The notes under the pieces: model-generated
Told to the model about the DNA's origin: nothing
What the model saw: only the letters and a program-made list of their open reading frames with translations
Database searches by the model: none
Part shown: one piece after another, positions 368 to 64,000 of the stretch
Position numbering within the stretch: position 1 is the stretch's first letter
Layout: every line of letters starts with the position of its first letter
Source: a virus
Lineage: Duplodnaviria > Heunggongvirae > Uroviricota > Caudoviricetes
Virus record (IMG/VR): IMGVR_UViG_2562617057_000010
Span: 1-64,000 of that record
Reading direction: 5' to 3' (one strand)
DNA length: 64,000 nt
Made by a program: the position numbers and the translations under genes

Positions 368-454
368 GCCCGGATGGTGGAATCGGTAGACACAAGGGAT
401 TTAAAATCCCTCGGCGTTCGCGCTGTGCGGGTTCAAGTCCCGCTCCGGGTACCA
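368..454 (+). tRNA. leuZ: tRNA-Leu (anticodon TAA), long variable arm
   Basis: 87-nt class II tRNA, anticodon loop TTTAAAATC, T-arm GGTTCAAGTCC, 3' ACCA. Confidence 0.95.
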
Positions 455-497
455 TGGGAAAGATAAGAATAAAATCAAAGCAATAAGCAGTGTCGTG

Positions 498-521
498 AAA
501 CCACCTTCGGGTGGTTTTTTC
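498..521 (+). terminator. Rho-independent terminator of tRNA operon
   Basis: Stem CCACC-TTCG-GGTGG followed by T6. Confidence 0.8.
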
Positions 522-2918: not shown

Positions 2919-3862
2919 AGCGCTTGCTCCTTTGTTGGAGAGGCGCTAACCTATCACTTGCTTAAGGTAGATATGTTAGGGCCTCGGTTAAACAGAAATG
3001 TTTTCCGGGGCCTTTCCACATCCGGCCTTCGGGTATTCCCTCCGACCATCAGCCGAAAGGCACCCGCGATTATTCTACTGATTTCCCGCTTCTCTGCTAC
3101 GTAAAGTTTCACGTCACCCGTTCGGTTCTCCGCGAAAGTTAAAATTTTGCCGCTTTTGTCGCTGCTTTCGTGAGCGGTTTTTGCTTGCGCCTGAAAATAG
3201 TTACACAGTGAAACTGTGTAACGCTGCGCCAAAACGATCCTTGTCCAATGTTTTGTTTTTACCTTTTATTTCATTGCGTTAAGTGGTTCCTGTGCGTGGC
3301 ACTTTGGCGGCATTCAGATCCTTTAAAATGACGAAAGCAAAAAATAGTTTTGTTTTTCATATGGTTAATTTTTCTGTCAGATCCTTTTTTAACGTTAATC
3401 TGGCAAAGCCTGGCAATCTTTGACACTTTGTGCCAGATGGCTTTTTTGTAAAGCGCCAGTGCTGGCGCGATCTGGAGTGTCGTTTTGCGCAAATTTATTT
3501 GGCAAAAAATTTTTATCGTAAAGAGTGCAAGCGCGGGGGGCTTGCGCCCGTGCCGTGTGTTGGGCTCATCATGCCGTGAAATATCCACGTAGCGTGCGTG
3601 TACGCTTTCAGGCGTTACGAGCTGAATTCAGGGTGACTCGCGCGTTTATTTGCTTAAAGCATGTCGCAGAATGCGATACAGCGCGTCTGGTGGGGGGTGT
3701 TTTTCTGGGGGAATGCCCGTCGCGACGGGCTTTCGTCTGGTTCGATGAATGAAATTTATTGATATATGAATAATTTCACGAAATGCTTATTTGTCTGTAT
3801 TTTGTGGCATGATTCTTGAGTGGTAAACCGGGCTGCCTGTGCACCTCTTCTCATCTGTAAAC

Positions 3863-19728: not shown

Positions 19729-19980
19729 ATGAGACAAAGAGAAGATCGCGACCGCGATTGGCCTTCGCTAAAGATTCAGCTGGCGCTCAAAGATAACGGG
19801 TGGTCTTCCTTCCGGGAGCTTTCACTCCATGCTGGTTATGCTCAGGATTCACTGAAAGCGGTGGTTCGTACACCGAACAAAAAATACGAACGCGTAATTT
19901 CTGACGCTATAGGTGTACCGCCAGAAATCATCTGGCCCAGCCGGTATCGTAACGATGGATTTATCAGGAAGGCGTCGTGA
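19729..19980 (+). CDS. ner: Ner-like DNA-binding protein
   Basis: 83 aa with Ner/Nlp signature PEIIWPSRY; first gene of early operon. Confidence 0.8.
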   Translation: MRQREDRDRDWPSLKIQLALKDNGWSSFRELSLHAGYAQDSLKAVVRTPNKKYERVISDAIGVPPEIIWPSRYRNDGFIRKAS

Positions 19981-19981
19981 T

Positions 19982-22087
19982 ATGCAGTCGTACGTTACCG
20001 TAAATGACCTGCTCGGCGTACCAGGAATGCCAGCCACCACAAAAGGCATCCGACAGGCGTTACAGCGTTTTTCTCGTGATCTTGGTGACGTTAGTCGCCG
20101 TCGGGAAGGCACAAAAGCCATTGAGTACCACATTGATTGTCTGCCTGAAATAACACGAAAGGCACTGCGTGAACGCTATGTGGAACAGCTGGTGGCTACA
20201 GAGAACAATGTTTCTGAAGTGAAAGCTGTTACCAGAAAAACACGCAATCCTGACGCTGTCCAGGCAATCGAAGCATATCGCGGTTCTCCACAACTGATGG
20301 AAGAACGCCTGAATGCGCTGACCGAAAACCAGCGCCGGGTATCTGAAGCAAGGGCTGCACTGGTGGTGGAGGTGCTGAAGCTGGAAAGCGACGGTAATCT
20401 CGGGCGACTGAAAGCCATCAACTTTCTTGTTGAAAAAGCCCGTAAAGGTGAATTACCGGAGCGCCTGCAACAAGCCGCAGTTAATGCCAATGCAAAGCGT
20501 GGTGCCAATCGCACCATCAGTCGTGACCCGCTTTATCAGTGGGTGCTGAAATACAACCAGTCGCAGAACGCAGCCGAACGACTGCTGTTACTGGCACCAG
20601 GAAAGCGCGACGAAATAAAACCGGAAGAAATTAGCTGGCTACCTGAATTTCTGGCGCAGTATCGCCAGGCGAATGGCAGACCTATGTCAGAAGCCTACGA
20701 GGATTTTGTCGCGGAATGGCAGCGTCGCCATGCTGACGAACCATACATGCTGGAGGTGATGCCTTCTTACGATGTGGTGCGTTATGCCATGAAGAAATTG
20801 CCGGAAGTGGTGAAACAAAAAGGGCGTGTTACCGGCAGTGAATACCGTCAGCTTGAAGGATTCACCCGCCGCGACTGGACAGCTATGCCGGTGAATTATG
20901 TCTGGATTGGTGACGGTCACGGTATGAAGCTGAAATGTGCGCATCCGGTTCACGGGCGTCCATTTTCGCCGGAAGTTACGTTTGTCATTGATGGTGGAAC
21001 CCGGTTTGTGGTTGGCTGGAGTCTTGATCTTGCTGAAAACGTGTTTGCTGTTGCCGGTGCGATACAGCACGGTATTCGTAATCACGGGAAACCCTTCCTG
21101 TATTACTCGGATAATGGTTCCGGTGAAACGGCAGACATGCTGGATAAAGAGATCGTCGGGATTCTGCCCCGTCTGGGGATTAACCACCCCACCGGTATTG
21201 CCGGAAATCCGCAGGGGCGCGGCATTATTGAGCGCCTGAACCGGACGCTGCCGATGCGTATAGCCAGGAGGTATCGCACCTATTTTGGCAGGGGTGCTGA
21301 CCGGGAATCGTTGCGAGTACTTAATCGTGATCTGCGTTCAGCGTTTAATGCCCTGCAACAGGACAAGCCGCTGAATGCTCGCCAGAAATCTGCAATGCGC
21401 GAGCTGCCGTCCTGGTCAGAACTGATTGAGGCTATTCGCGAAGGCGTGGAATGGTACAACAACCGCCCGCATTCTGAACTGCCGATGAAACCAAACGGGA
21501 AGCATTGCAGCCCGGCTGAGTTCAGGAAAAAACGCCTGGCGGAAGAAAACACCGAAATTGAGTGGCTGAGCGATCTTGAGCTGCGCGACATGTTCCGTCC
21601 GATGGTGGAGCGTCCGGTAAGACGCTGTGAAATCAAATGGCTTGGGAATATTTATTACGCGCCGGAGCTGCGTGATGAACATGGTCGCAAAGTGCTTATC
21701 AGCTATGACATTCATGATGCAGAGCGAATTACAGTGCGCCGTAAGGATGGCAGTTTTATTTGTGAGGCGATATGGAACGGCAATAAACGCGCAGCCTTTC
21801 CTGTCAGTGCGGAATATCACAAACAGCAGCAGCGTATTAAAGGAATGCGCAAACGCGCTGAGGGAAAAATTCGTGATGCTGAAGATGAAGGTATTCAGGT
21901 TATTGAACAAAAAACGACAGAACCCTGGCTGGGGAATGTTTATCGCCCTGTGGGTAATGTGGTGACAGTTCAGCCTCAGGCTCCTGAGGAGACGCTTGAT
22001 AATGCATACAACGCTGAGCGTGATGAATATCTGAATCATTCACTGGATATTCTGGAACAGAAAAGACGTAAAAAGCTGTTTAATTAA
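19982..22087 (+). CDS. A: MuA-like DDE transposase
   Basis: about 702 aa from ATG 19982; integrase-core motifs; C-terminus ERDEYLNHSLDILEQKRRKK resembles the MuA C-terminal tail. Confidence 0.9.
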   Translation: MQSYVTVNDLLGVPGMPATTKGIRQALQRFSRDLGDVSRRREGTKAIEYHIDCLPEITRKALRERYVEQLVATENNVSEVKAVTRKTRNPDAVQAIEAYRGSPQLMEERLNALTENQRRVSEARAALVVEVLKLESDGNLGRLKAINFLVEKARKGELPERLQQAAVNANAKRGANRTISRDPLYQWVLKYNQSQNAAERLLLLAPGKRDEIKPEEISWLPEFLAQYRQANGRPMSEAYEDFVAEWQRRHADEPYMLEVMPSYDVVRYAMKKLPEVVKQKGRVTGSEYRQLEGFTRRDWTAMPVNYVWIGDGHGMKLKCAHPVHGRPFSPEVTFVIDGGTRFVVGWSLDLAENVFAVAGAIQHGIRNHGKPFLYYSDNGSGETADMLDKEIVGILPRLGINHPTGIAGNPQGRGIIERLNRTLPMRIARRYRTYFGRGADRESLRVLNRDLRSAFNALQQDKPLNARQKSAMRELPSWSELIEAIREGVEWYNNRPHSELPMKPNGKHCSPAEFRKKRLAEENTEIEWLSDLELRDMFRPMVERPVRRCEIKWLGNIYYAPELRDEHGRKVLISYDIHDAERITVRRKDGSFICEAIWNGNKRAAFPVSAEYHKQQQRIKGMRKRAEGKIRDAEDEGIQVIEQKTTEPWLGNVYRPVGNVVTVQPQAPEETLDNAYNAERDEYLNHSLDILEQKRRKKLFN

Positions 22088-22121: not shown

Positions 22122-23075
22122 ATGAATATTTCTGATATTCGCGAAGAACTACGCACACTTGTAGAAAGTGAAAAAGTCACTTTTAAACAAATTGCTATTG
22201 AGAGTGATATTTCTACCGGGACTGTCAGTGCGTTTATTAACGATAAATACAGCGGCGATAATGAACGTATCGCACAGGTACTGAAGTGCTGGCTTGACGA
22301 TTATCTTGCTGCCGCAGACCTGCCGGAATTGCCTGGTTTTGTTCAAACGCAGACGGTAAAACAAATCTGGACAAGTATACGCTTTGCCAGCCTGACAGAG
22401 AGTATTGCTGTTATCTGCGGTAATCCTGGTGTGGGTAAATCTGAAGCAGCCAAAGAGTATCGCCGTACCAATAATAACGTCTGGATGATCACCATGGCAC
22501 CATCCCGTGTCAGTGTTCTGGAATGTCTTACGGAACTGGCGTTTGAGCTGGGAATGAACGGTATCCCACGCTGCAAGGGGCCGTTATCCCGTGAATTGCG
22601 CCGTCGTCTTGGGGGAACGCATGGGGTGGTTATTGTAGATGAAGCAGACCATCTTGATATTGCGGCGCTGGAAGAACTTCGTTTGTTACAGGAATCAACC
22701 CGTATTGGCCTGGTATTGATGGGTAATCACCATCTTTACACGAATATGACGGGGGGGAGCAAAACGGTTGAGTTTGCCCGTCTGTTTTCGCGCATAGCAA
22801 AACGCACGGCTATCAAAGCGCCCAAAGTTAACGATGTAAAAGCGATTGCGGAAGCCTGGGATGTTACCGCCAAAAAAGAGCAGGAATTCTTACTGGAGAT
22901 TGCACAGAAACCAGGTGCAATTCGCACCATGACTTACACATTACGTCTTGCTGCCATGAATGCTTACGGTAAAGGCAAACGTGTTAACGAAGATTACCTG
23001 CGTGAGGCTTACGAAGAACTGGATCAGGATGTGGATGTTCAGGAACAGTTGGGTATAAGGAGAGCGAAATCATGA
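22122..23075 (+). CDS. B: MuB-like transposition ATPase
   Basis: 317 aa, Walker A GNPGVGKS, Walker [10 protein letters not shown]. Confidence 0.9.
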
Positions 23076-30238: not shown

Positions 30239-30608
30239 AAGTTTACTGCTGGCAGCCGTGTTTGCCGCCGTTCTGTCCGGGGTGTTGTGGCACAGGCTGG
30301 ACAGCACCCGCCACGATAACCAGACGCTGCGCCGTGAATTACAGACGGAGCAACAGGCCCGCCACACTGCTGAATGGTTGTTACACGGTCAGGAACAGAC
30401 GATGCAGGTATTTTCCGCTATCCGTGCCGCAAATCGTGCCGCACGGCTGGCAGATGAGACAGAACATCATGATGCAAAAGAAAAAATTACAACCGCCATT
30501 ACCGGTGACGATTGCAGCACTCGTCCTGTGCCTGCCGTTGCTGCTGACAGGTTGCGGGAACTCGAAAAACGCACCCGTGCCATCGGTGGTGATCCTGCCC
30601 GAAACTGA
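30222..30608 (+). CDS. Spanin inner-membrane subunit (Rz-like)
   Basis: 128 aa, N-terminal TM, coiled coil. Confidence 0.6.
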   Translation: MTFASKSLLLAAVFAAVLSGVLWHRLDSTRHDNQTLRRELQTEQQARHTAEWLLHGQEQTMQVFSAIRAANRAARLADETEHHDAKEKITTAITGDDCSTRPVPAVAADRLRELEKRTRAIGGDPARN

Positions 30609-37565: not shown

Positions 37566-38651
37566 ATGAAAAAACACGCGATTGGCATTGCCGCACTGAG
37601 TGCGCTGTCCATTGACGATGACGGCTGGTGCCAGCTATTGCCTGCCGGTCATTTCAGTGCCCGTGATGGTCGTCCGTTTGATGTGACAGGCGGTCAGGGG
37701 TGGTTCATCGACGGTGAGATTGCCGGGCGTCTGGTTGAAGGCGTTCGCGCGCTCAACCAGGACGTGCTGATTGATTACGAGCATAACCAGCTACGTAAGG
37801 ACAAAGGATTACCCCCGGAACAACTCGTCGCGGCTGGCTGGTTTAACGCCGATGAAATGCAGTGGCGTGAAGGTGAAGGGTTATTTATCCACCCACGCTG
37901 GACGGCGGCGGCCCAGCAGCGCATCGATGACGGCGAATTTGGTTATCTCTCTGCGGTTTTTCCGTATGACACCGCCACCGGTGCGGTGCTGCAAATCCGC
38001 CTTGCTGCGCTGACCAATGACCCCGGTGCCACCGGCATGAAAAAGCTGACCGCACTGGCGGCAGACCTTCCCGACATCCTTCAACAGGAGAACAAACCCA
38101 TGAATGAAACGCTGCGCAAGCTGCTTGCGCGTCTTGGGGTGACTGTCCCCGAAAATGCAGACATCACCGATGAACAGGCAACAGCGGCACTGACCGCACT
38201 GGACACGCTGGAAAGTAATGCCGGGAAAGTGGCGTCGTTATCCGCCGAACTGGAAAAGGCACAGAACGCCGCCGTTGACCTGACGAAATACGTCCCGGTG
38301 GAAAGCTACAACGCCCTGCGTGATGAACTGGCACAGGCGACTGCACAAAGCGCCACAGCCAGCCTGAGCGCCGTTCTGGACAAGGCGGAACAGGAAGGCC
38401 GCATTTTCAAAAGCGAACGTACCTATCTGGAACAGCTTGGCGGTCAGATTGGCGTGGCGGCACTGTCGGCACAGCTTGAGAAAAAACAGCCCATCGCTGC
38501 GTTATCTGCCATGCAGACCACAACGGTACAAAACCTGTCACAGGAAAAACCGGCAGTGGCGGTGCTGTCTGCTGATGAACAGGCAGCAGTGAAGGCGCTC
38601 GGCATTACTGAGGCTGAGTATCTGAAAATGAAACAGGAACAAGAAAAATGA
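37566..38651 (+). CDS. Head protease / scaffold (Mu I-like)
   Basis: 361 aa, Ala/Gln-rich coiled-coil C-terminal half. Confidence 0.7.
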   Translation: MKKHAIGIAALSALSIDDDGWCQLLPAGHFSARDGRPFDVTGGQGWFIDGEIAGRLVEGVRALNQDVLIDYEHNQLRKDKGLPPEQLVAAGWFNADEMQWREGEGLFIHPRWTAAAQQRIDDGEFGYLSAVFPYDTATGAVLQIRLAALTNDPGATGMKKLTALAADLPDILQQENKPMNETLRKLLARLGVTVPENADITDEQATAALTALDTLESNAGKVASLSAELEKAQNAAVDLTKYVPVESYNALRDELAQATAQSATASLSAVLDKAEQEGRIFKSERTYLEQLGGQIGVAALSAQLEKKQPIAALSAMQTTTVQNLSQEKPAVAVLSADEQAAVKALGITEAEYLKMKQEQEK

Positions 38652-39565
38652 TTGTCACCCCGGCATCCATTAAAGCCCTGATGACCTCCTGGCGTAAGGA
38701 TTTTCAGGGCGGTCTTGAAGACGCCCCGTCGCAGTACAGCAAAATTGCAATGGTGGTGAACTCTTCCACCCGCAGTAATACCTATGGCTGGCTGGGTAAA
38801 TTCCCGACCCTGAAAGAATGGGTGGGTAAGCGAACCATTCAGCAAATGGAAGCGCATGGCTACTCTATCGCCAATAAAACGTTTGAAGGCACCGTGGGTA
38901 TTTCCCGTGATGACTTCGAGGATGACAATCTGGGTATTTATGCGCCGATTTTTCAGGAGATGGGCCGTTCTGCGGCAGTTCAGCCGGATGAGCTGATTTT
39001 TAAACTTCTGAAAGATGGCTTTACCCAGCCCTGCTATGACGGTCAGAACTTCTTCGACAAGGAGCATCCGGTATATCCGAATGTGGACGGCACGGGCAGC
39101 GCGGTTAATACCTCCAACATCGTTGAGCAGGACAGCTTCAGCGGTCTGCCATTCTATCTGCTGGACTGCTCCCGCGCAGTCAAACCGCTGATTTTCCAGG
39201 AGCGCCGCAAACCGGAACTGGTCGCACGTACCCGTATCGATGACGACCACGTTTTTATGGATAACGAGTTCCTGTTTGGTGCCAGCGCCCGCCGTGCTGC
39301 CGGTTACGGCTTCTGGCAGATGGCTGTCGCGGTAAAAGGCGATCTGACGCTGGATAACCTCTGGAAGGGCTGGCAACTGATGCGATCTTTTGAAGGTGAT
39401 GGCGGTAAGAAGCTGGGCCTGAAGCCGACGCATATCGTTGTACCGGTCGGGCTGGAAAAAGCCGCAGAGCAACTGCTTAACCGTGAACTGTTCGCGGATG
39501 GCAATACCACCGTCTCCAACGAGATGAAGGGCAAGCTGCAACTGGTTGTCGCTGACTACCTGTAA
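38648..39565 (+). CDS. Major head subunit (Mu T-like)
   Basis: 305 aa followed by strong terminator. Confidence 0.8.
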   Translation: MIVTPASIKALMTSWRKDFQGGLEDAPSQYSKIAMVVNSSTRSNTYGWLGKFPTLKEWVGKRTIQQMEAHGYSIANKTFEGTVGISRDDFEDDNLGIYAPIFQEMGRSAAVQPDELIFKLLKDGFTQPCYDGQNFFDKEHPVYPNVDGTGSAVNTSNIVEQDSFSGLPFYLLDCSRAVKPLIFQERRKPELVARTRIDDDHVFMDNEFLFGASARRAAGYGFWQMAVAVKGDLTLDNLWKGWQLMRSFEGDGGKKLGLKPTHIVVPVGLEKAAEQLLNRELFADGNTTVSNEMKGKLQLVVADYL

Positions 39566-58024: not shown

Positions 58025-58181
58025 TTCATTACCGCTTTTTGATGTATCTGGCGGTATTATTGCGGCTGTTTTCGCGGGTTTCATTCGTTCTGAATCCGGG
58101 CTTTTCGTATATGATTTTATGTGCGAAAAATGCCAAAATTTAACGATATTTCAGAGTGTTATTGCTCTTTATGATGGGCGA

Positions 58182-60005
58182 ATGAAATATACCGAAGAAG
58201 TCAGGGACGCTGCCCGCGCCCTGTATCTGAAATTCAGTACACCAAAAGAGATAGCGGCCACGCTGGGGCTTCCTGTGCGTACCGTTTATAACTGGGCTGT
58301 CCGGGGGCAATGGAATGAAATGTTACCAGCCGAGTCGGTGGAAGTGGCTGTCGCTCGGCGAGTGGAACGACTGACCTGCAAGGATGGTAAAAGCGAGCTT
58401 GAGCTTGAAGAGCTGCGCTTCCTGATATCCCAGCACGTCAGGCTGATGGCGCAGAAGAACAAACATGCTGAACGGATGGAAGAGATCCGGGCGATGGTCA
58501 ATACCGGCGTGGTGGTCAATGATGGCCGACAGGGTAGCAGTGAAGAAGGGAATGACGAAGGTGGTAAAAAAAGGAAGCGACTACGTAAAAATGATGTCGG
58601 CGGACTGACAAAAGAAATATTTGATGAAAAAGCGAATGGTCATCTGTTTGAATATCAGCAATATGTGCGTGAGCACGGCGACGAACTGTTCCGCTTCATT
58701 CTGAAAGGGCGACAGGAAGGATTTACCTACTATTTTGCATGGGAAGGGTTTGAAAAGGCCGTTCTCACGGGCAAGAATCAGATATTCTTTTCCGCCAGTA
58801 AACCCCAGGCGGAAGTTTTCCGTTTCTATATTCTCAGTATTGCGCAGCAATTCTTTGGTGTCGAGCTTAAAGGCAACCCGATTCGCCTCAGCAATGGTGC
58901 GATACTGCGTTTTCTGGCGACCAATCCCAATACGGCGCAGTCCTACAGTGGCGACCTGTACGGGGATGAGGTCTTCTGGATATCGAAATTTGCCCGCCTG
59001 CATGAAGTGGCGTCAGCGATGGCGACGCATGACGAATTCCGTATTACCTATTTTTCAACCCCCAGCACTAAAACGCACCAGGCTTACAGGCTGTGGACAG
59101 GGGATGAATGGAAGGGCGACGATCCGAAACGTAAGGCGGCGGAGTTCCCGACCAGCAAGGAATTGCGTAAAGGTGGACAGGTCTGCCCTGACGGGATCTG
59201 GCGCTATGTCATCACAATGGAGGATGCGTGCGCTAAGGGACTCAGTGCCAGAGTTAACATTGAGAAGCTGCGTAACCGCTACAGCGCCACGGCGTTTGCC
59301 ATGCTGTACATGTGTGAGTTCACTGACTCCCGCGACACAGTATTTAAATTCTCAGACCTTGAAAAATGTGAGGTTGAGTTCGGCATCTGGCAGGACTTCG
59401 ACCCCTCCGCATTACGGCCTTTTGGTAATCGTGAGGTGTGGGGTGGTTTTGATCCGTCACGAACGGGTGATAACTCAACATTTGTTATTGTGGCCCCGCC
59501 TGTTGAGCCTAAAGAAAAATTTCGCGTGCTGGCTGTCTACCAGTGGGTGGGGCTTAACTTCACCTGGCAGGTTAAGCAGATTGAAGAATTAATGAAACGC
59601 TACCGGTTTACGCATATCGGGGTGGATATCACGGGTATTGGCCGGGGTGTTTATGATCAACTGGTACGCTCCGCACCGCGTGAGGTGATGGGGATTAACT
59701 ACAGTGTTGATAATAAAAATAAACTGGTGCTTAAGATGATTGACCTCATTGAGCGGCGACGTATCCAGTGGGTGAAAGATGCGGTTGATGAGGTGACAAA
59801 AGAACGTGCCGATATCCCGCTGGCATTTATGGCCATCCGCCGTGTAATGACTGCCAGTCAGAACGCAATGACGTTCGCCGCCGAACGCAGCGAAACGACC
59901 GGTCACGCGGACGTATTTTTTGCCATATCGCACGCGGTCTGTAATGAACCGCTCGACTATGAATATGACCGCCCCTCGGTGTGGGCATTCGGGAAGGCTG
60001 CATGA
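58182..60005 (+). CDS. P: Terminase ATPase (large) subunit, P2 gpP-like
   Basis: about 607 aa from ATG 58182; divergent from O. Confidence 0.75.
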   Translation: MKYTEEVRDAARALYLKFSTPKEIAATLGLPVRTVYNWAVRGQWNEMLPAESVEVAVARRVERLTCKDGKSELELEELRFLISQHVRLMAQKNKHAERMEEIRAMVNTGVVVNDGRQGSSEEGNDEGGKKRKRLRKNDVGGLTKEIFDEKANGHLFEYQQYVREHGDELFRFILKGRQEGFTYYFAWEGFEKAVLTGKNQIFFSASKPQAEVFRFYILSIAQQFFGVELKGNPIRLSNGAILRFLATNPNTAQSYSGDLYGDEVFWISKFARLHEVASAMATHDEFRITYFSTPSTKTHQAYRLWTGDEWKGDDPKRKAAEFPTSKELRKGGQVCPDGIWRYVITMEDACAKGLSARVNIEKLRNRYSATAFAMLYMCEFTDSRDTVFKFSDLEKCEVEFGIWQDFDPSALRPFGNREVWGGFDPSRTGDNSTFVIVAPPVEPKEKFRVLAVYQWVGLNFTWQVKQIEELMKRYRFTHIGVDITGIGRGVYDQLVRSAPREVMGINYSVDNKNKLVLKMIDLIERRRIQWVKDAVDEVTKERADIPLAFMAIRRVMTASQNAMTFAAERSETTGHADVFFAISHAVCNEPLDYEYDRPSVWAFGKAA

Positions 60006-61057
60006 GTAAACGTAAAAGCGCACGCCTGCGTAAACGGGCACAGACAGAAAATTTTACTCCCGGACGCGGCAATATTATCACTTTTGGGGAGCCGGAACCG
60101 ATACTGACTACCGGCACGGAATACATCAACGTCTGGTATAACGGTAGCTACAACTACTGGACACTACCAATAGACAGACTTGCGCTCGCGCAGTTGCCGA
60201 ACCTTAACGCCCAGCATGGCGGCGTACTGTATGCACGCAAAAATATGGTGTGTGCCAGCTACCAGGGGGGTGGACTGACGACCGATCAGATGGAAATGGC
60301 TGTCTTTGACTACCTGCTGTTTGGTGATGTGGCCATTCTGAAGGTCCGTAACGGGTGGGGACGGGTGGTGGCGCTGGCACCATTACCGTCTTTGTATCTG
60401 CGTCGCAGCAAGCAACTTGATTTTATCGTGTTACAGGAGGGCGAGCCGCTGGTCTATTCGCCGTCTGATGTTGTGTTTTTACGTATGCATGATCCGCGAC
60501 AGCAGATTTATGGACTGCCTGATTATATCGGTGGTATTCATTCAGCGTTACTGAACAGTGAGGCGACCATTTTCAGACGTCGCTACTATCACAACGGTGC
60601 GCATATGGGGTTCATCATGTACGCGTCCGACCCGAATATGTCTGTTGAGGCTGAAGAAGCTATACGTAAAAAAATAGAGAGCGGTAACGGGCTTGGGAAT
60701 TTCCGTAACATGTTTATCAGTATCCCAAAAGGGCAACCGGACGGGATTAAAATTATTCCGGTTGGGGATATTCAGCAAAAAGATGAGTTTTCAAATGTGA
60801 AGAATATCAGCGCTCAGGATGTTCTTACGGCGCACCGCTTTCCGGCTGGTCTTGCCGGTATTATCCCGCAAAATGCGAGCGGACTTGGCGATCCCGATAA
60901 GGCAAGGACAACCTATGGACGGGATGAAGTGACACCTGTCTGCCGTAAATTCATGCAGGCTGTGAACAGCGATCCCGAAATCCCCCCGTCGTTACACCTT
61001 AATTTTACGCTGGAAGATGTGGAAAATGTGGTGTCTGCGCTGGCTGATGAAAAATAA
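60002..61057 (+). CDS. Q: Portal protein, P2 gpQ-like
   Basis: about 351 aa, start overlaps P stop. Confidence 0.75.
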   Translation: MSKRKSARLRKRAQTENFTPGRGNIITFGEPEPILTTGTEYINVWYNGSYNYWTLPIDRLALAQLPNLNAQHGGVLYARKNMVCASYQGGGLTTDQMEMAVFDYLLFGDVAILKVRNGWGRVVALAPLPSLYLRRSKQLDFIVLQEGEPLVYSPSDVVFLRMHDPRQQIYGLPDYIGGIHSALLNSEATIFRRRYYHNGAHMGFIMYASDPNMSVEAEEAIRKKIESGNGLGNFRNMFISIPKGQPDGIKIIPVGDIQQKDEFSNVKNISAQDVLTAHRFPAGLAGIIPQNASGLGDPDKARTTYGRDEVTPVCRKFMQAVNSDPEIPPSLHLNFTLEDVENVVSALADEK

Positions 61058-61119
61058 CCCGAAAAAGACTATATTACCCCTGCAACCGGTCAGATTGTGG
61101 GGGGGTTATGGCGGGTGTG

Positions 61120-61383
61120 ATGAAAATTGAATGTCCGGCGTGTCACTGCCGGGCGGCTATACGCAAAACTGCATGGCAGGATGACGCAAAAACGCTGGCG
61201 GTAGTTTATTGCACCTGCACTAATTCTGACTGTAATATGCGTTTTTCGCTCAATCTTTCCGATCTTCGCGTGATTTCACCCAGTGACCTGCAAACTGATG
61301 GTGTCGTTAAAGCATTGCTCCAGCGCCTTAAACCAGACGAAAGGCAAATGGCACTGGATATTCTGCTCAGTGATGGCGCGTAA
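61120..61383 (+). CDS. Ogr/Delta-like zinc-finger transcription factor, putative
   Basis: about 87 aa with CPAC...(23)...CTCTNSDC zinc-finger spacing. Confidence 0.5.
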   Translation: MKIECPACHCRAAIRKTAWQDDAKTLAVVYCTCTNSDCNMRFSLNLSDLRVISPSDLQTDGVVKALLQRLKPDERQMALDILLSDGA

Positions 61384-61438
61384 GTGCCATTCTGTGGGGC
61401 GGTGGATCTTCCGCTTCCTCGCCCTGACAGACTCACCG

Positions 61439-61687
61439 CTATGCGGTTCGCCCGGCATTTCTGAAATCAATGTGCAATAGCTCCAGTGCGGCTTCTTTAT
61501 CAGCACCCGTTAATTCGAGATAATCCCAGAGGCTGGCGCATAAACCACAGTTTCGCGAAAATATTCCGTCTGGATTTGCTCCGTTTTTCAGCCACAAATC
61601 ATAAGTAATATAAAATCCGTGAAGTTGTTGCCTGATATTTTCTTTGATTTCCTGTACTGGCACGGTGTCTGGTAATTGCTCTCTCAT
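61439..61687 (-). CDS. Hypothetical protein downstream of replication gene
   Basis: 82 aa. Confidence 0.35.
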   Translation of the reverse strand: MREQLPDTVPVQEIKENIRQQLHGFYITYDLWLKNGANPDGIFSRNCGLCASLWDYLELTGADKEAALELLHIDFRNAGRTA

Positions 61688-62115
61688 TGTGGATCTCTCC
61701 TGTGTTGTGCCGGTCTGGCGAATGAAGGGTGCTGCGATGAAAAGACCCTTCGCGCCAGTGCGGCCTTGCGATTGACGGCAGTCAGTGTTCTGGCCAGCGC
61801 GACATTGTGTTTGCGGGCCTGCTCTTCGTGGTACTTCTGCATGATTTTTCCGGCCGGGGTGAGCGGCTCCGGTTCTTCCGGCGAACGGCGTGGGCGAACG
61901 GCAATGGTCCAGCTCTGATATTCACTGCCCGGTCGCCTGTTAAGTATGTCGGTGATGGTGGTTGTGGTGGTGCGATCGGGGCTGGCCACCGTGATTTCCA
62001 GTTCGTCCCCGGGCTGTGGTCTTGTGGCTACGCCTCTCAGTGTCATGGCTGGCGTGCGCTGGCGCATAACGGCGTCGAACTGCTGACGCTGCATGGTGCA
62101 GTGAAATCGCGTCAT
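61684..62115 (-). CDS. Hypothetical protein downstream of replication gene
   Basis: 143 aa, start overlaps stop of upstream gene. Confidence 0.35.
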   Translation of the reverse strand: MTRFHCTMQRQQFDAVMRQRTPAMTLRGVATRPQPGDELEITVASPDRTTTTTITDILNRRPGSEYQSWTIAVRPRRSPEEPEPLTPAGKIMQKYHEEQARKHNVALARTLTAVNRKAALARRVFSSQHPSFARPAQHRRDPQ

Positions 62116-64000
62116 GATCTTACCTCCGCTGACGACTCCTGTGTGATGACGATACGGCGGGTTGTGGCGCTCCAGTACGCGATACGCCCGTCGCCCGGGC
62201 GAACGCGGGCACCGTTACTCACGGAAATAATGGCTGCGTCAGGCAGCTGCACACCCAGCGCGTCGAGTTCGCGGGTGATTTGTGCGATGGTCGTGGTGTC
62301 GACAGGCACGACAACCTCCACCCTGACAGGGGTGTCTGATGCTGGTCTGGTGTTATTTTGTCCGGTATCCGTGGTGGGCGGCTGATTTTTAAGCTGTCTG
62401 ATGAGCTGTTTCCGCTCGTGACGGGTTAACGTCTGCAACCAGTGCGCCAGGCCGCTTTCCGGAAGCGTCAGCCGCGACCCACGCTGCCTGTTTTCTGTGC
62501 CGGTTCCGGCTGTTTTTTCGTCACCGGGACAGTTATTGCCACGAGTCCAAGGGGCGGCAGGGCCGCCCTGAAGGTCAAAACCATTTTCGCGGGCGCTGTC
62601 TTCCGCTTCCGGTTTACGTCTTACCAGCTTCCAGTTGTCCGGATGCGTGCACACACGGGAGGATTCCCCGATGAGTGGCGACCAGATCCCGTAAATCTGT
62701 ACGCTCTGTTCGCCGTAATCGTTCAGCTCATCTGCGAGGTCGTAGGCGGTGCGAATCAGGTAGTCCTTACGTGGAACAAGTACGCCGCCCTGTTTCTCTA
62801 TGTAGGTGGCAAAACACCCGGCATCAGCGGCAGCAAGAACCGCATCCATTGCGTCATCCTTCAGCCGTTGCGGACCTTCTGGGTTGCGTGCCATCTGGCT
62901 GGCAAGGCGGCGCAGTTCACGCCATACCTGACGGGAGGGGATGCCAAAGAACTGGAACTGGCGGACCCGGTGAAGGCGCGCCCAGCCGATGGCGCGTTCC
63001 ACGCTTTCTGCCATCGTCTTTCCTGATTCGTCGTCGATGCGCGGTTTGCCTGTTTTCGGGTCAATGCCATCCACGGCGTGGCTGTCCAGGTTCTTTCCGA
63101 TGTAGGTGGCGATATAGCTGGTCGGCGTACCTTTCGAACCGTCGACGTACTCCGCCTTAAAGCGCGGAGTTATGTCATCGCCCAGCTCGTGGCGGTCTTC
63201 ACGAATGGCAATATCGCGGGCGATGGTCACGATGCTGTCGATTTCTTCAGGATGTGCAAAGACCATCATATGCCAGTGCACCGTGCCGTCATGGTGAGGC
63301 TCCACCGTGCGGATGCCATACCAGCGCAGGCCCTTGCGGTCCAGTCTGTTACGAACGGCTTTAAAAAAAGTGTTAACCAGATAATCACTGGAATCGCGCA
63401 TGGTAGCCCCGTTCCATTTGGGGTTCGGATGACCGTTCTCCGTTGTTGCGTGGTATTTTGACGGGCAGGTGACAGTCAGAAACACCGCTTTGTCGCCACG
63501 GGATTCGGCTATAAGTTCCGCCCCTTTCATGGTGGCCATCATTTCTGCCTTACGGTGAACCGGGTTACTTACTCCCGCGTAATACACTGTCTCGAGATCA
63601 ATCGTGAACCCGTCTTCATTTTCCAGCATGAAACTTTTCAGAAAATCGCGTGTTTTCTCGCGCTGTGCGCGAAACTCACTTAACGCGTCCTGGCTCAGAT
63701 AGGGCGATGTTTTTCTGGAAACCAGACAGGCGGCGCGGAGTTGTTCTTCTCTCCACTCGCAACGTAAAAGCCACAGTTTGCGTTTCCACCAGTCCGCACA
63801 GGTCAGGCGAAGGATTGCGCTCGGCAGCAGTTCCGTGTCCGGTTCGTTCTTGCGGTCTTTGTCTGTTGTCAGCGCGTCATAATGTGGAGGCATGGCGTGC
63901 AGGTGTAGCGCCATGCGGGCCAGCATCTGATACGCCTTCAGTGCCACCTCCATGGTCAGCTCGCCATCTCTGGCACCGAAACCATCACAGAGTGTTTCAA
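62112..64000 (-). CDS. A: Rolling-circle replication initiator (HUH endonuclease, P2 gpA-like); N-terminus may lie beyond window
   Basis: HUH motif GTVHWHMMVF and catalytic Y-x3-Y (TSYIATYIGK); over 613 aa. Confidence 0.7.
   Translation of the reverse strand, partial: ETLCDGFGARDGELTMEVALKAYQMLARMALHLHAMPPHYDALTTDKDRKNEPDTELLPSAILRLTCADWWKRKLWLLRCEWREEQLRAACLVSRKTSPYLSQDALSEFRAQREKTRDFLKSFMLENEDGFTIDLETVYYAGVSNPVHRKAEMMATMKGAELIAESRGDKAVFLTVTCPSKYHATTENGHPNPKWNGATMRDSSDYLVNTFFKAVRNRLDRKGLRWYGIRTVEPHHDGTVHWHMMVFAHPEEIDSIVTIARDIAIREDRHELGDDITPRFKAEYVDGSKGTPTSYIATYIGKNLDSHAVDGIDPKTGKPRIDDESGKTMAESVERAIGWARLHRVRQFQFFGIPSRQVWRELRRLASQMARNPEGPQRLKDDAMDAVLAAADAGCFATYIEKQGGVLVPRKDYLIRTAYDLADELNDYGEQSVQIYGIWSPLIGESSRVCTHPDNWKLVRRKPEAEDSARENGFDLQGGPAAPWTRGNNCPGDEKTAGTGTENRQRGSRLTLPESGLAHWLQTLTRHERKQLIRQLKNQPPTTDTGQNNTRPASDTPVRVEVVVPVDTTTIAQITRELDALGVQLPDAAIISVSNGARVRPGDGRIAYWSATTRRIVITQESSAEVRS

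Follow-up and report, generated by a model that had tools for sequence, protein, structure and literature searches.

Late-gene activators and the portal-replication interval in related phages

The late-gene activator Ogr is characterized by a CX2CX22CX4C zinc-finger motif and activates promoters with the TGT-N12-ACA element, which in P2 is positioned near -55 (PMC3931495). In the P2 record one activator site (3057–3087) is found between the divergent head-gene promoters pP and pO, whose starts (3016 and 3127) are about 55 bp from it on each side, and the phage has four late promoters. In P2 the ogr gene, which stands between gene D and int and ends a late operon, is transcribed from a promoter of its own and, later on, from the F operon. 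Proteins of the Ogr/Delta family bind zinc and act through the alpha subunit of RNA polymerase.

The interval between the portal (gpQ) and replication (gpA) genes, designated as tin/old, is a defence hotspot in P2-like phages (Rousset et al. 2022, PMC9122126). The P2 replication gene A (end at 30319) is followed with a 4-bp overlap by orf91 (start at 30316), which encodes a DUF3850/ASCH protein with a sequence match to 3iuw at 5e-11. In phages K139 and Smhb1 the ogr homologue sits between the portal and the replication endonuclease genes (PMC8537503), and in HP1-type phages cos adjoins attP and is not placed after the portal gene (PMC2771037). An experimental test of late activation in any K139-type member was not found in the literature.

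Host element and layout of the interval

The window, a stretch of 64,000 nucleotides (positions 1 to 64,000 of IMG/VR virus record IMGVR_UViG_2562617057_000010), carries a K139/HP1-type Peduoviridae prophage of E. coli adjoining tRNA-Leu. The head genes of this prophage (scaffold, capsid, gpM, terL, and portal) are of P2 type and its tail module is non-P2, while the gene order is that of Vibrio phage K139, which assigns the element to the HP1/K139 branch of Peduoviridae and not to P2 proper. An earlier note on this DNA had interpreted it by the P2-type layout, but the element is not a classic P2.

The interval occupies positions 61058–62115 and its region is 100% identical in two E. coli chromosomes, the segment being found in 6 of 5,426 complete E. 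coli genomes. It is preceded on the plus strand by the terminase large subunit gene terL (P2 gpP type; 58182–60005; RefSeq annotation of the 100%-identical locus and ORF list) and by the portal gene (P2 gpQ type; 60002–61057; Pfam Phage_portal and phrog_68, E 6.6e-121; RefSeq), and is bordered on the minus strand by the 3′ part of the replication endonuclease gene (P2 gpA type; 62112–64000; Pfam Phage_GPA, E 8e-122). The replication gene continues past the window end, up to which its tblastn alignment with an 838-aa homologue extends, and therefore the “613 aa” replication ORF of the list is only a partial gene. The same gene is mosaic, with a 3′ end nearly identical to that of FDAARGOS_943, a divergent part upstream of 63444, and 68.7% overall protein identity.

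All three ORFs that the earlier note described in the interval are present in the ORF list, and their convergence is also correct: the zinc-finger gene (ZnF) lies on the plus strand after the portal end at 61057, and orf82 and orf143 lie on the minus strand. Essentially this portal-to-replication locus is an ordinary one, and for relatives both the identity of the ZnF gene and the layout are found in existing annotations and publications. It is probably the junction of the late and early blocks, composed of an Ogr-family activator (ZnF), a counterpart of P2 orf91 with the ASCH/DUF3850 fold (orf143), and a deletion remnant (orf82). Within the searchable literature three elements appear to be new, namely, the dyad proposed as an operator for the whole family, the prediction that the terL transcript is leaderless, and the fold link between orf143 and orf91.

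Zinc-finger gene

The ZnF gene (61108–61383, plus strand) encodes a 91-aa C4 zinc finger of the Ogr/Delta family, K139 Orf13 subfamily, which is a predicted late-gene activator. The ORF had been correctly recognized in the earlier note, where its product was given as 87 aa; this length corresponds to the internal ATG at 61120, while the start codon of the family, established by alignment of the upstream regions of 17 relatives (MAGVMKI versus MRVFKI), is at 61108.

The identical protein is annotated in RefSeq as “ogr/Delta-like zinc finger family protein,” and the Ogr/Delta-like reading proposed earlier is supported by several profile comparisons. Pfam Ogr_Delta (PF04606) is matched by ZnF itself at E 5e-5 with 23.4–23.5 bits, which is under the gathering cut-off of 26.3, and by 21 of 21 subfamily members in the representative alignment (E<=0.01; best 4.9e-20); the subfamily profile matches P2 Ogr over the finger (hhalign probability 91%, E 1e-6), and PHROG 603 (“transcriptional regulator”) is matched at E 3.6e-24. 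The likeness to P2 Ogr, 186 B, and P4 Delta consists in the aligned four-cysteine finger, where C9, C12, C37, and C42 of ZnF correspond to C4, C7, C30, and C35 of Ogr. The Ogr/Delta-like spacing claimed before holds for this alignment of the cysteines but not for the linker between C12 and C37, which in the window ZnF has a 2-residue insertion and comprises 24 residues (CX2CX24CX4C), while the rest of the K139-type subfamily retains the 22 residues of Ogr. This insertion explains the sub-threshold Pfam score of ZnF.

The C-terminal half of the protein (SPS...L.P.ERQ..L..L) is kept within the subfamily and is unrelated to that of Ogr; S53-P54-S55 and L82 are invariant and Q76 and L79 nearly invariant (numbering of the 87-aa form). 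Homologues with 33–48% identity over 85–97% of the length were found by tblastn in Salmonella SW3/SI7, Cronobacter ESSI-2, Yersinia vB_YenM_324, Aeromonas phiO18P, and Vibrio K139/Kappa (Orf13), and a weaker one (31.8% identity) in Burkholderia KS5. With the K139 Orf13 group (phiO18P gp19, SW3/SI7, ESSI-2, Smhb1; PHROG 603) ZnF thus shares 33–48% full-length identity, the C4 finger, a helical C-terminal tail, and the location immediately behind the portal gene, with transcription in the direction of portal and convergent to the early operon. The E. coli lineage differs from this group by the CX2CX24CX4C finger, by a variant dyad, and by a hairpin without a U-run in the place of the terminator.

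This position is strongly conserved. Among the 80 related IMG/VR loci retrieved with the ZnF subfamily profile, the portal gene is immediately upstream of the ZnF homologue and on the same strand in 77 (gaps of 65–113 nt; protein identity 36–100%), and one of the other three loci begins too near the contig end to judge. The homologues of K139, SW3, and phiO18P also adjoin the portal gene on its downstream side, share its strand, and converge with the replication operon, and in the RefSeq annotation of the prophage ZnF is the sole Ogr-like gene. The synteny in 77 of 80 loci, the published K139 and Smhb1 layout, and the lack of another annotated Ogr-like gene together characterize ZnF as a fixed core regulator, which occupies the canonical place for K139/HP1-type phages. 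In comparison with P2 the gene resembles ogr in being the last of a late operon and in having its own promoter, but it follows the portal gene, whereas P2 ogr stands between gene D and int.

Candidate operator and late promoters

The scaffold/terminase divergent intergenic region contains an imperfect dyad, TTCGTATAT-N6-ATGTGCGAA (58104–58127; TTCGTATATGATTTTATGTGCGAA), which is a candidate site for the ZnF activator. The dyad consensus TTCGGWTAT-N6-ATWWCCGAA is present with fixed spacing in 54 of 54 unique related scaffold/terL intergenic regions, at 42 nt from the conserved scaffold-side -10 and at 44 nt from the conserved CATAAT on the terL side. One such site, a perfect dyad at 15489–15512 in the same intergenic region, is found in the whole K139 genome. 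In the prophage the window dyad is the best-scoring site, with 3 of 18 positions off the family consensus, and these mismatches occur in the same lineage as the insertion in the finger linker.

The dyad is flanked by two -10-like hexamers. On the minus strand AATAAT (58056–58061), attributed to the promoter of the scaffold/capsid late operon, was found by promoter scan in a family-conserved position and ends 42 nt from the dyad; on the plus strand TATGAT (58170–58175; CATAAT in relatives), attributed to the terL-portal-ZnF operon, starts 66 nt past the first position of the dyad and 12 nt ahead of the ATG of terL. Judged from these -10 positions, the centre of the dyad precedes each of the two predicted divergent late starts by about 66 bp. 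A single dyad between divergent head-gene promoters is a likeness to P2, while the candidate site itself differs from that of P2 in its sequence (TTCGGWTAT-N6-ATWWCCGAA versus TGT-N12-ACA) and distance (near -66 versus near -55), and this phage seemingly has one site per genome as compared with the four late promoters of P2. The P2 element was also considered as the late-promoter motif here and was rejected, being absent from the scaffold/terL intergenic region and found 12 times across the window versus 16.6 matches expected by chance.

The -10 hexamer on the terL side begins precisely 12 nt ahead of the start codon of terL with no Shine-Dalgarno sequence between them, both in the window (58170–58184) and in 54 related loci, which predicts a leaderless terminase mRNA throughout the family.

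The ZnF gene is preceded by a promoter-like element of its own, ATGAAA-17-TATATT (61047–61075, plus strand; promoter scan), which overlaps the portal stop codon. Its -10 (TATATT; TAAAAT in relatives) is kept across 17 diverse relatives, and a putative P13 is annotated at the same place in the K139 record. After the gene, between the convergent genes, a G+C-rich hairpin without a U-run is located (61391–61431, plus strand; RNA fold -27 kcal/mol, z -2.2), at the place where relatives have a canonical intrinsic terminator.

On the grounds of its conservation and position the dyad is proposed to be bound by ZnF. According to this scheme initial synthesis of ZnF would proceed from its own weak promoter (61047–75), after which the protein would bind the single dyad at 58104–58127 and recruit RNA polymerase to both divergent late promoters, like P2 Ogr at pO/pP; read-through from terL-portal would then provide positive feedback on ZnF, since ZnF is the last gene of the terL-portal operon and the activation would raise its own expression. 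The K139-type Ogr homologues may thus recognise an undescribed operator, TTCGGWTAT-N6-ATWWCCGAA, once per genome, and the 2-residue finger insertion and the altered dyad of the E. coli lineage may represent a co-varied pair. The conserved dyad is an operator candidate, open to direct testing, for an entire branch of the Ogr family.

The alternative that survives best is that ZnF is a zinc ribbon with some other role (Lar-like restriction alleviation, antirepressor, or early/lysogeny regulator) and not a late activator, as could be supposed from weak Lar_restr_allev matches in 8 of 21 subfamily members and ligase zinc ribbon matches in 6 of 21, from a C-terminal domain unlike that of Ogr, and from the missing TGT-N12-ACA at the late promoters. 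This alternative is considered unlikely, though, because Ogr_Delta is by far the best family in all 21 members and the subfamily profile matches P2 Ogr, the prophage has no other annotated candidate late activator, the gene ends a late operon as P2 ogr does, and the conserved dyad stands at the P2-equivalent place between the late promoters. The reading of ZnF as a predicted late-gene activator is therefore preferred.

orf143 and its counterpart in P2

The orf143 gene (61684–62115, minus strand), with a predicted ASCH/DUF3850-like barrel, overlaps the stop of the replication gene by 4 bp (ATGA, 62112–62115) and is followed by orf82 with another 4-bp ATGA overlap. Both overlaps fit co-transcription and translational coupling with the replication gene, in agreement with the coupling of the small ORFs to this gene supposed in the earlier note. 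In RefSeq both orf143 and orf82 are annotated as hypothetical.

In the AlphaFold2 model of orf143 (mean pLDDT 81.7; about 90 for the N-terminal domain) a small β-barrel with one helix (residues 1–75) is followed by a long basic helix (87–127), and the predicted N-terminal domain has the ASCH/PUA-like β-barrel fold, the same as that of P2 orf91. The protein resembles P2 orf91 also in its 4-bp overlap after the replication gene, while it differs in having an extra 40-residue basic helix, in the tiny size of its family, and in the lack of detectable sequence similarity by BLASTP and hhalign. No match to orf143 was obtained by tblastn in 50,697 phage records or in Pfam, NCBIfam, and PADLOC. Its family comprises 34 clusters at 90% identity, essentially of E. 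coli prophages, and an exhaustive profile search among 1.84 billion proteins gave 3 representatives at 50% identity; with only three true relatives, there is no sequence bridge to DUF3850. Within the close relatives of the prophage orf143 is retained in all.

According to its place and the structural model, orf143 corresponds to P2 orf91 in position and in predicted structure, and the tin/old-equivalent position assigned to it earlier has to be replaced by the orf91-equivalent one. Its predicted fold makes it probable that the protein binds nucleic acid and serves the early/replication operon as an accessory. The parallel between orf143 and orf91 suggests the ASCH-fold protein as a recurring partner of the gpA-type initiator, and, given P2 orf91 and this phage, ASCH-fold proteins could have an unrecognised replication-linked role. 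That this role, the new dyad recognised by K139-type Ogr homologues, the leaderless terL, and the co-varied E. coli pair all hold jointly is quite possible, though the combination falls a little short of probable.

orf82 and the cargo site

The orf82 gene (61439–61687, minus strand; phrog_6418, phrog_2510) is a 3′-truncated copy that overlaps orf143 by 4 bp. The conserved domain of its family, the members of which have 115–210 aa, runs to about residue 105 (...LPFNE..HY.EE...MCHMNPARVAWVRAQ), while in orf82 79 residues of this domain of about 105 are kept, followed by “RTA*.” Comparison with the family thus characterizes orf82 as an apparently non-functional remnant of a 2.1-kb deletion. No functional match was found in NCBIfam, Pfam, and PADLOC, and structure prediction for the family reached pLDDT 51, too low to be of use. 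The family also occurs, without orf143, in the nin-like region of lambdoid prophages.

Full-length orf82 relatives (L007 6001–6396, in an E. coli lambdoid prophage) are found among DUF551, hok/gef, Fic, RusA, and Q antiterminator genes, and from this nin-region-like surrounding it follows that the family moves between lambdoid and P2-type prophages. Conserved cysteine and histidine residues of the family (GLCA, H62, and MCH) hint at a metal site.

The assumption that orf82 and orf143 form a functional accessory pair (toxin-antitoxin or defence) riding on the replication operon would agree with their being small overlapping ORFs inside a known defence hotspot and with the essential limitation of both families to E. 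coli and Shigella prophages. It is nevertheless very improbable, since neither of them is matched by PADLOC, the C-terminal third conserved in the orf82 family is missing from orf82 itself, the full-length family is found without orf143 in lambdoid prophages, and orf143 has an ASCH-like fold at the place of P2 orf91. The two small unknown ORFs of the earlier note are accordingly read here as an orf91-like gene and a truncated remnant.

The deletion junction, which is also the cargo hotspot site, was mapped at 61450–61452, where 2,099 bp of the sibling prophages are missing at 61451/61452 with 2 bp of microhomology (compared with siblings CFSAN029787, L013, L016, and L018). Besides the 3′ end of the orf82 homologue, the missing sequence has genes for two proteins, one with a PIN domain and one of HTH/M78-peptidase type. 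The HTH/M78 protein matches PADLOC RmrA at 3e-35 and together with its PIN partner is therefore considered as a RosmerTA-like toxin-antitoxin defence pair. The pair fills the gap between ZnF and the orf82 homologue at L013 6399–8052 and at L002 2705–4358, and some copies also contain IS600.

The distance from ZnF to the replication gene is 734, 2,835, or 4,102 bp in the E. coli lineage and ranges from 169 to 4,154 nt in the wider family. ZnF and orf143 are present in all close relatives, and only the gap between ZnF and orf82 varies; PADLOC gave no match (E<=1) for ZnF, orf82, or orf143. The sibling cargo and the variable distances therefore support the hotspot concept, with the site located at the gap after ZnF. 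The variable hotspot of the earlier note stands as regards the variability of the interval, but its extent has to be reduced to the 55-bp gap between ZnF and orf82, which is empty here. The locus resembles the P2 tin/old hotspot in being a variable site between the portal and replication genes, with the RmrA-like and PIN cassette of the siblings, with or without IS600, and differs from it in that the site is confined to this gap and that ZnF and orf143 are fixed genes. As judged by comparison with the siblings, the hotspot of the window is one emptied by deletion, with a gene remnant left behind.

The view of the earlier note that ZnF is one of several variable cargo genes (morons) in a tin/old-equivalent hotspot is hardly tenable: despite the documented gpQ-gpA hotspot of P2-like phages (PMC9122126) and the different interval content of close relatives, it is contradicted by the synteny of ZnF with the portal gene in 77 of 80 loci at 36–100% identity and in K139, SW3, and phiO18P, by the published layout (PMC8537503), by the location of all variation downstream of ZnF, and by its being the only Ogr-family gene of the prophage, with no match to defence families. 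For ZnF as a fixed core regulator there is also a practical consequence, as automated gpQ-gpA hotspot screens in P2-like prophages will flag ZnF and orf143 as “cargo” though they are fixed phage genes, the true insertion site in such screens being the short gap after ZnF.

Prophage end, cos, and the nested prophage

The adjacency of cos and the Q gene assumed in the earlier note is doubtful, because in HP1-type phages cos adjoins attP (PMC2771037) and a search of the window for the 19-nt cos of P2, verified against the P2 record, gave nothing with up to 3 mismatches allowed. In the linear K139 record the distance from the end to attP is about 0.5 kb; short-word BLAST of the ends of this record against two candidate regions, of which the left-hand one was mis-mapped, gave words at chance level only. 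By analogy, cos may be located at the far prophage end, between the last tail-operon gene and tRNA-Leu.

This prophage end (window 368–520, 835–1725, and about 2778–2918) is marked by tRNA-Leu(taa) and contains an IS3-family element (835–1725) and a hok/gef gene. A 121-bp att repeat (window 400–520) recurs after the integrase gene in the reference genome. The IS3-family element and hok/gef separate the tRNA from the last tail-operon gene and are followed by about 0.9 kb without annotated genes, where cos may be sought.

A 36.4-kb Mu-like transposable prophage (window 18727–55094) is nested within the K139-type prophage and carries genes for a MuA-type transposase (19913–22087), MuB (22122–23075), and the Mu gpT capsid protein (38648–39565). 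It interrupts the outer prophage between the stop of gpM (55101) and the start of the head-completion gene (18624). Because the long late operon is split in this way, the outer prophage can probably no longer produce virions, and the target operon of the ZnF regulator is broken in the window genome. An uninterrupted version of the K139-type prophage is present in FDAARGOS_943.
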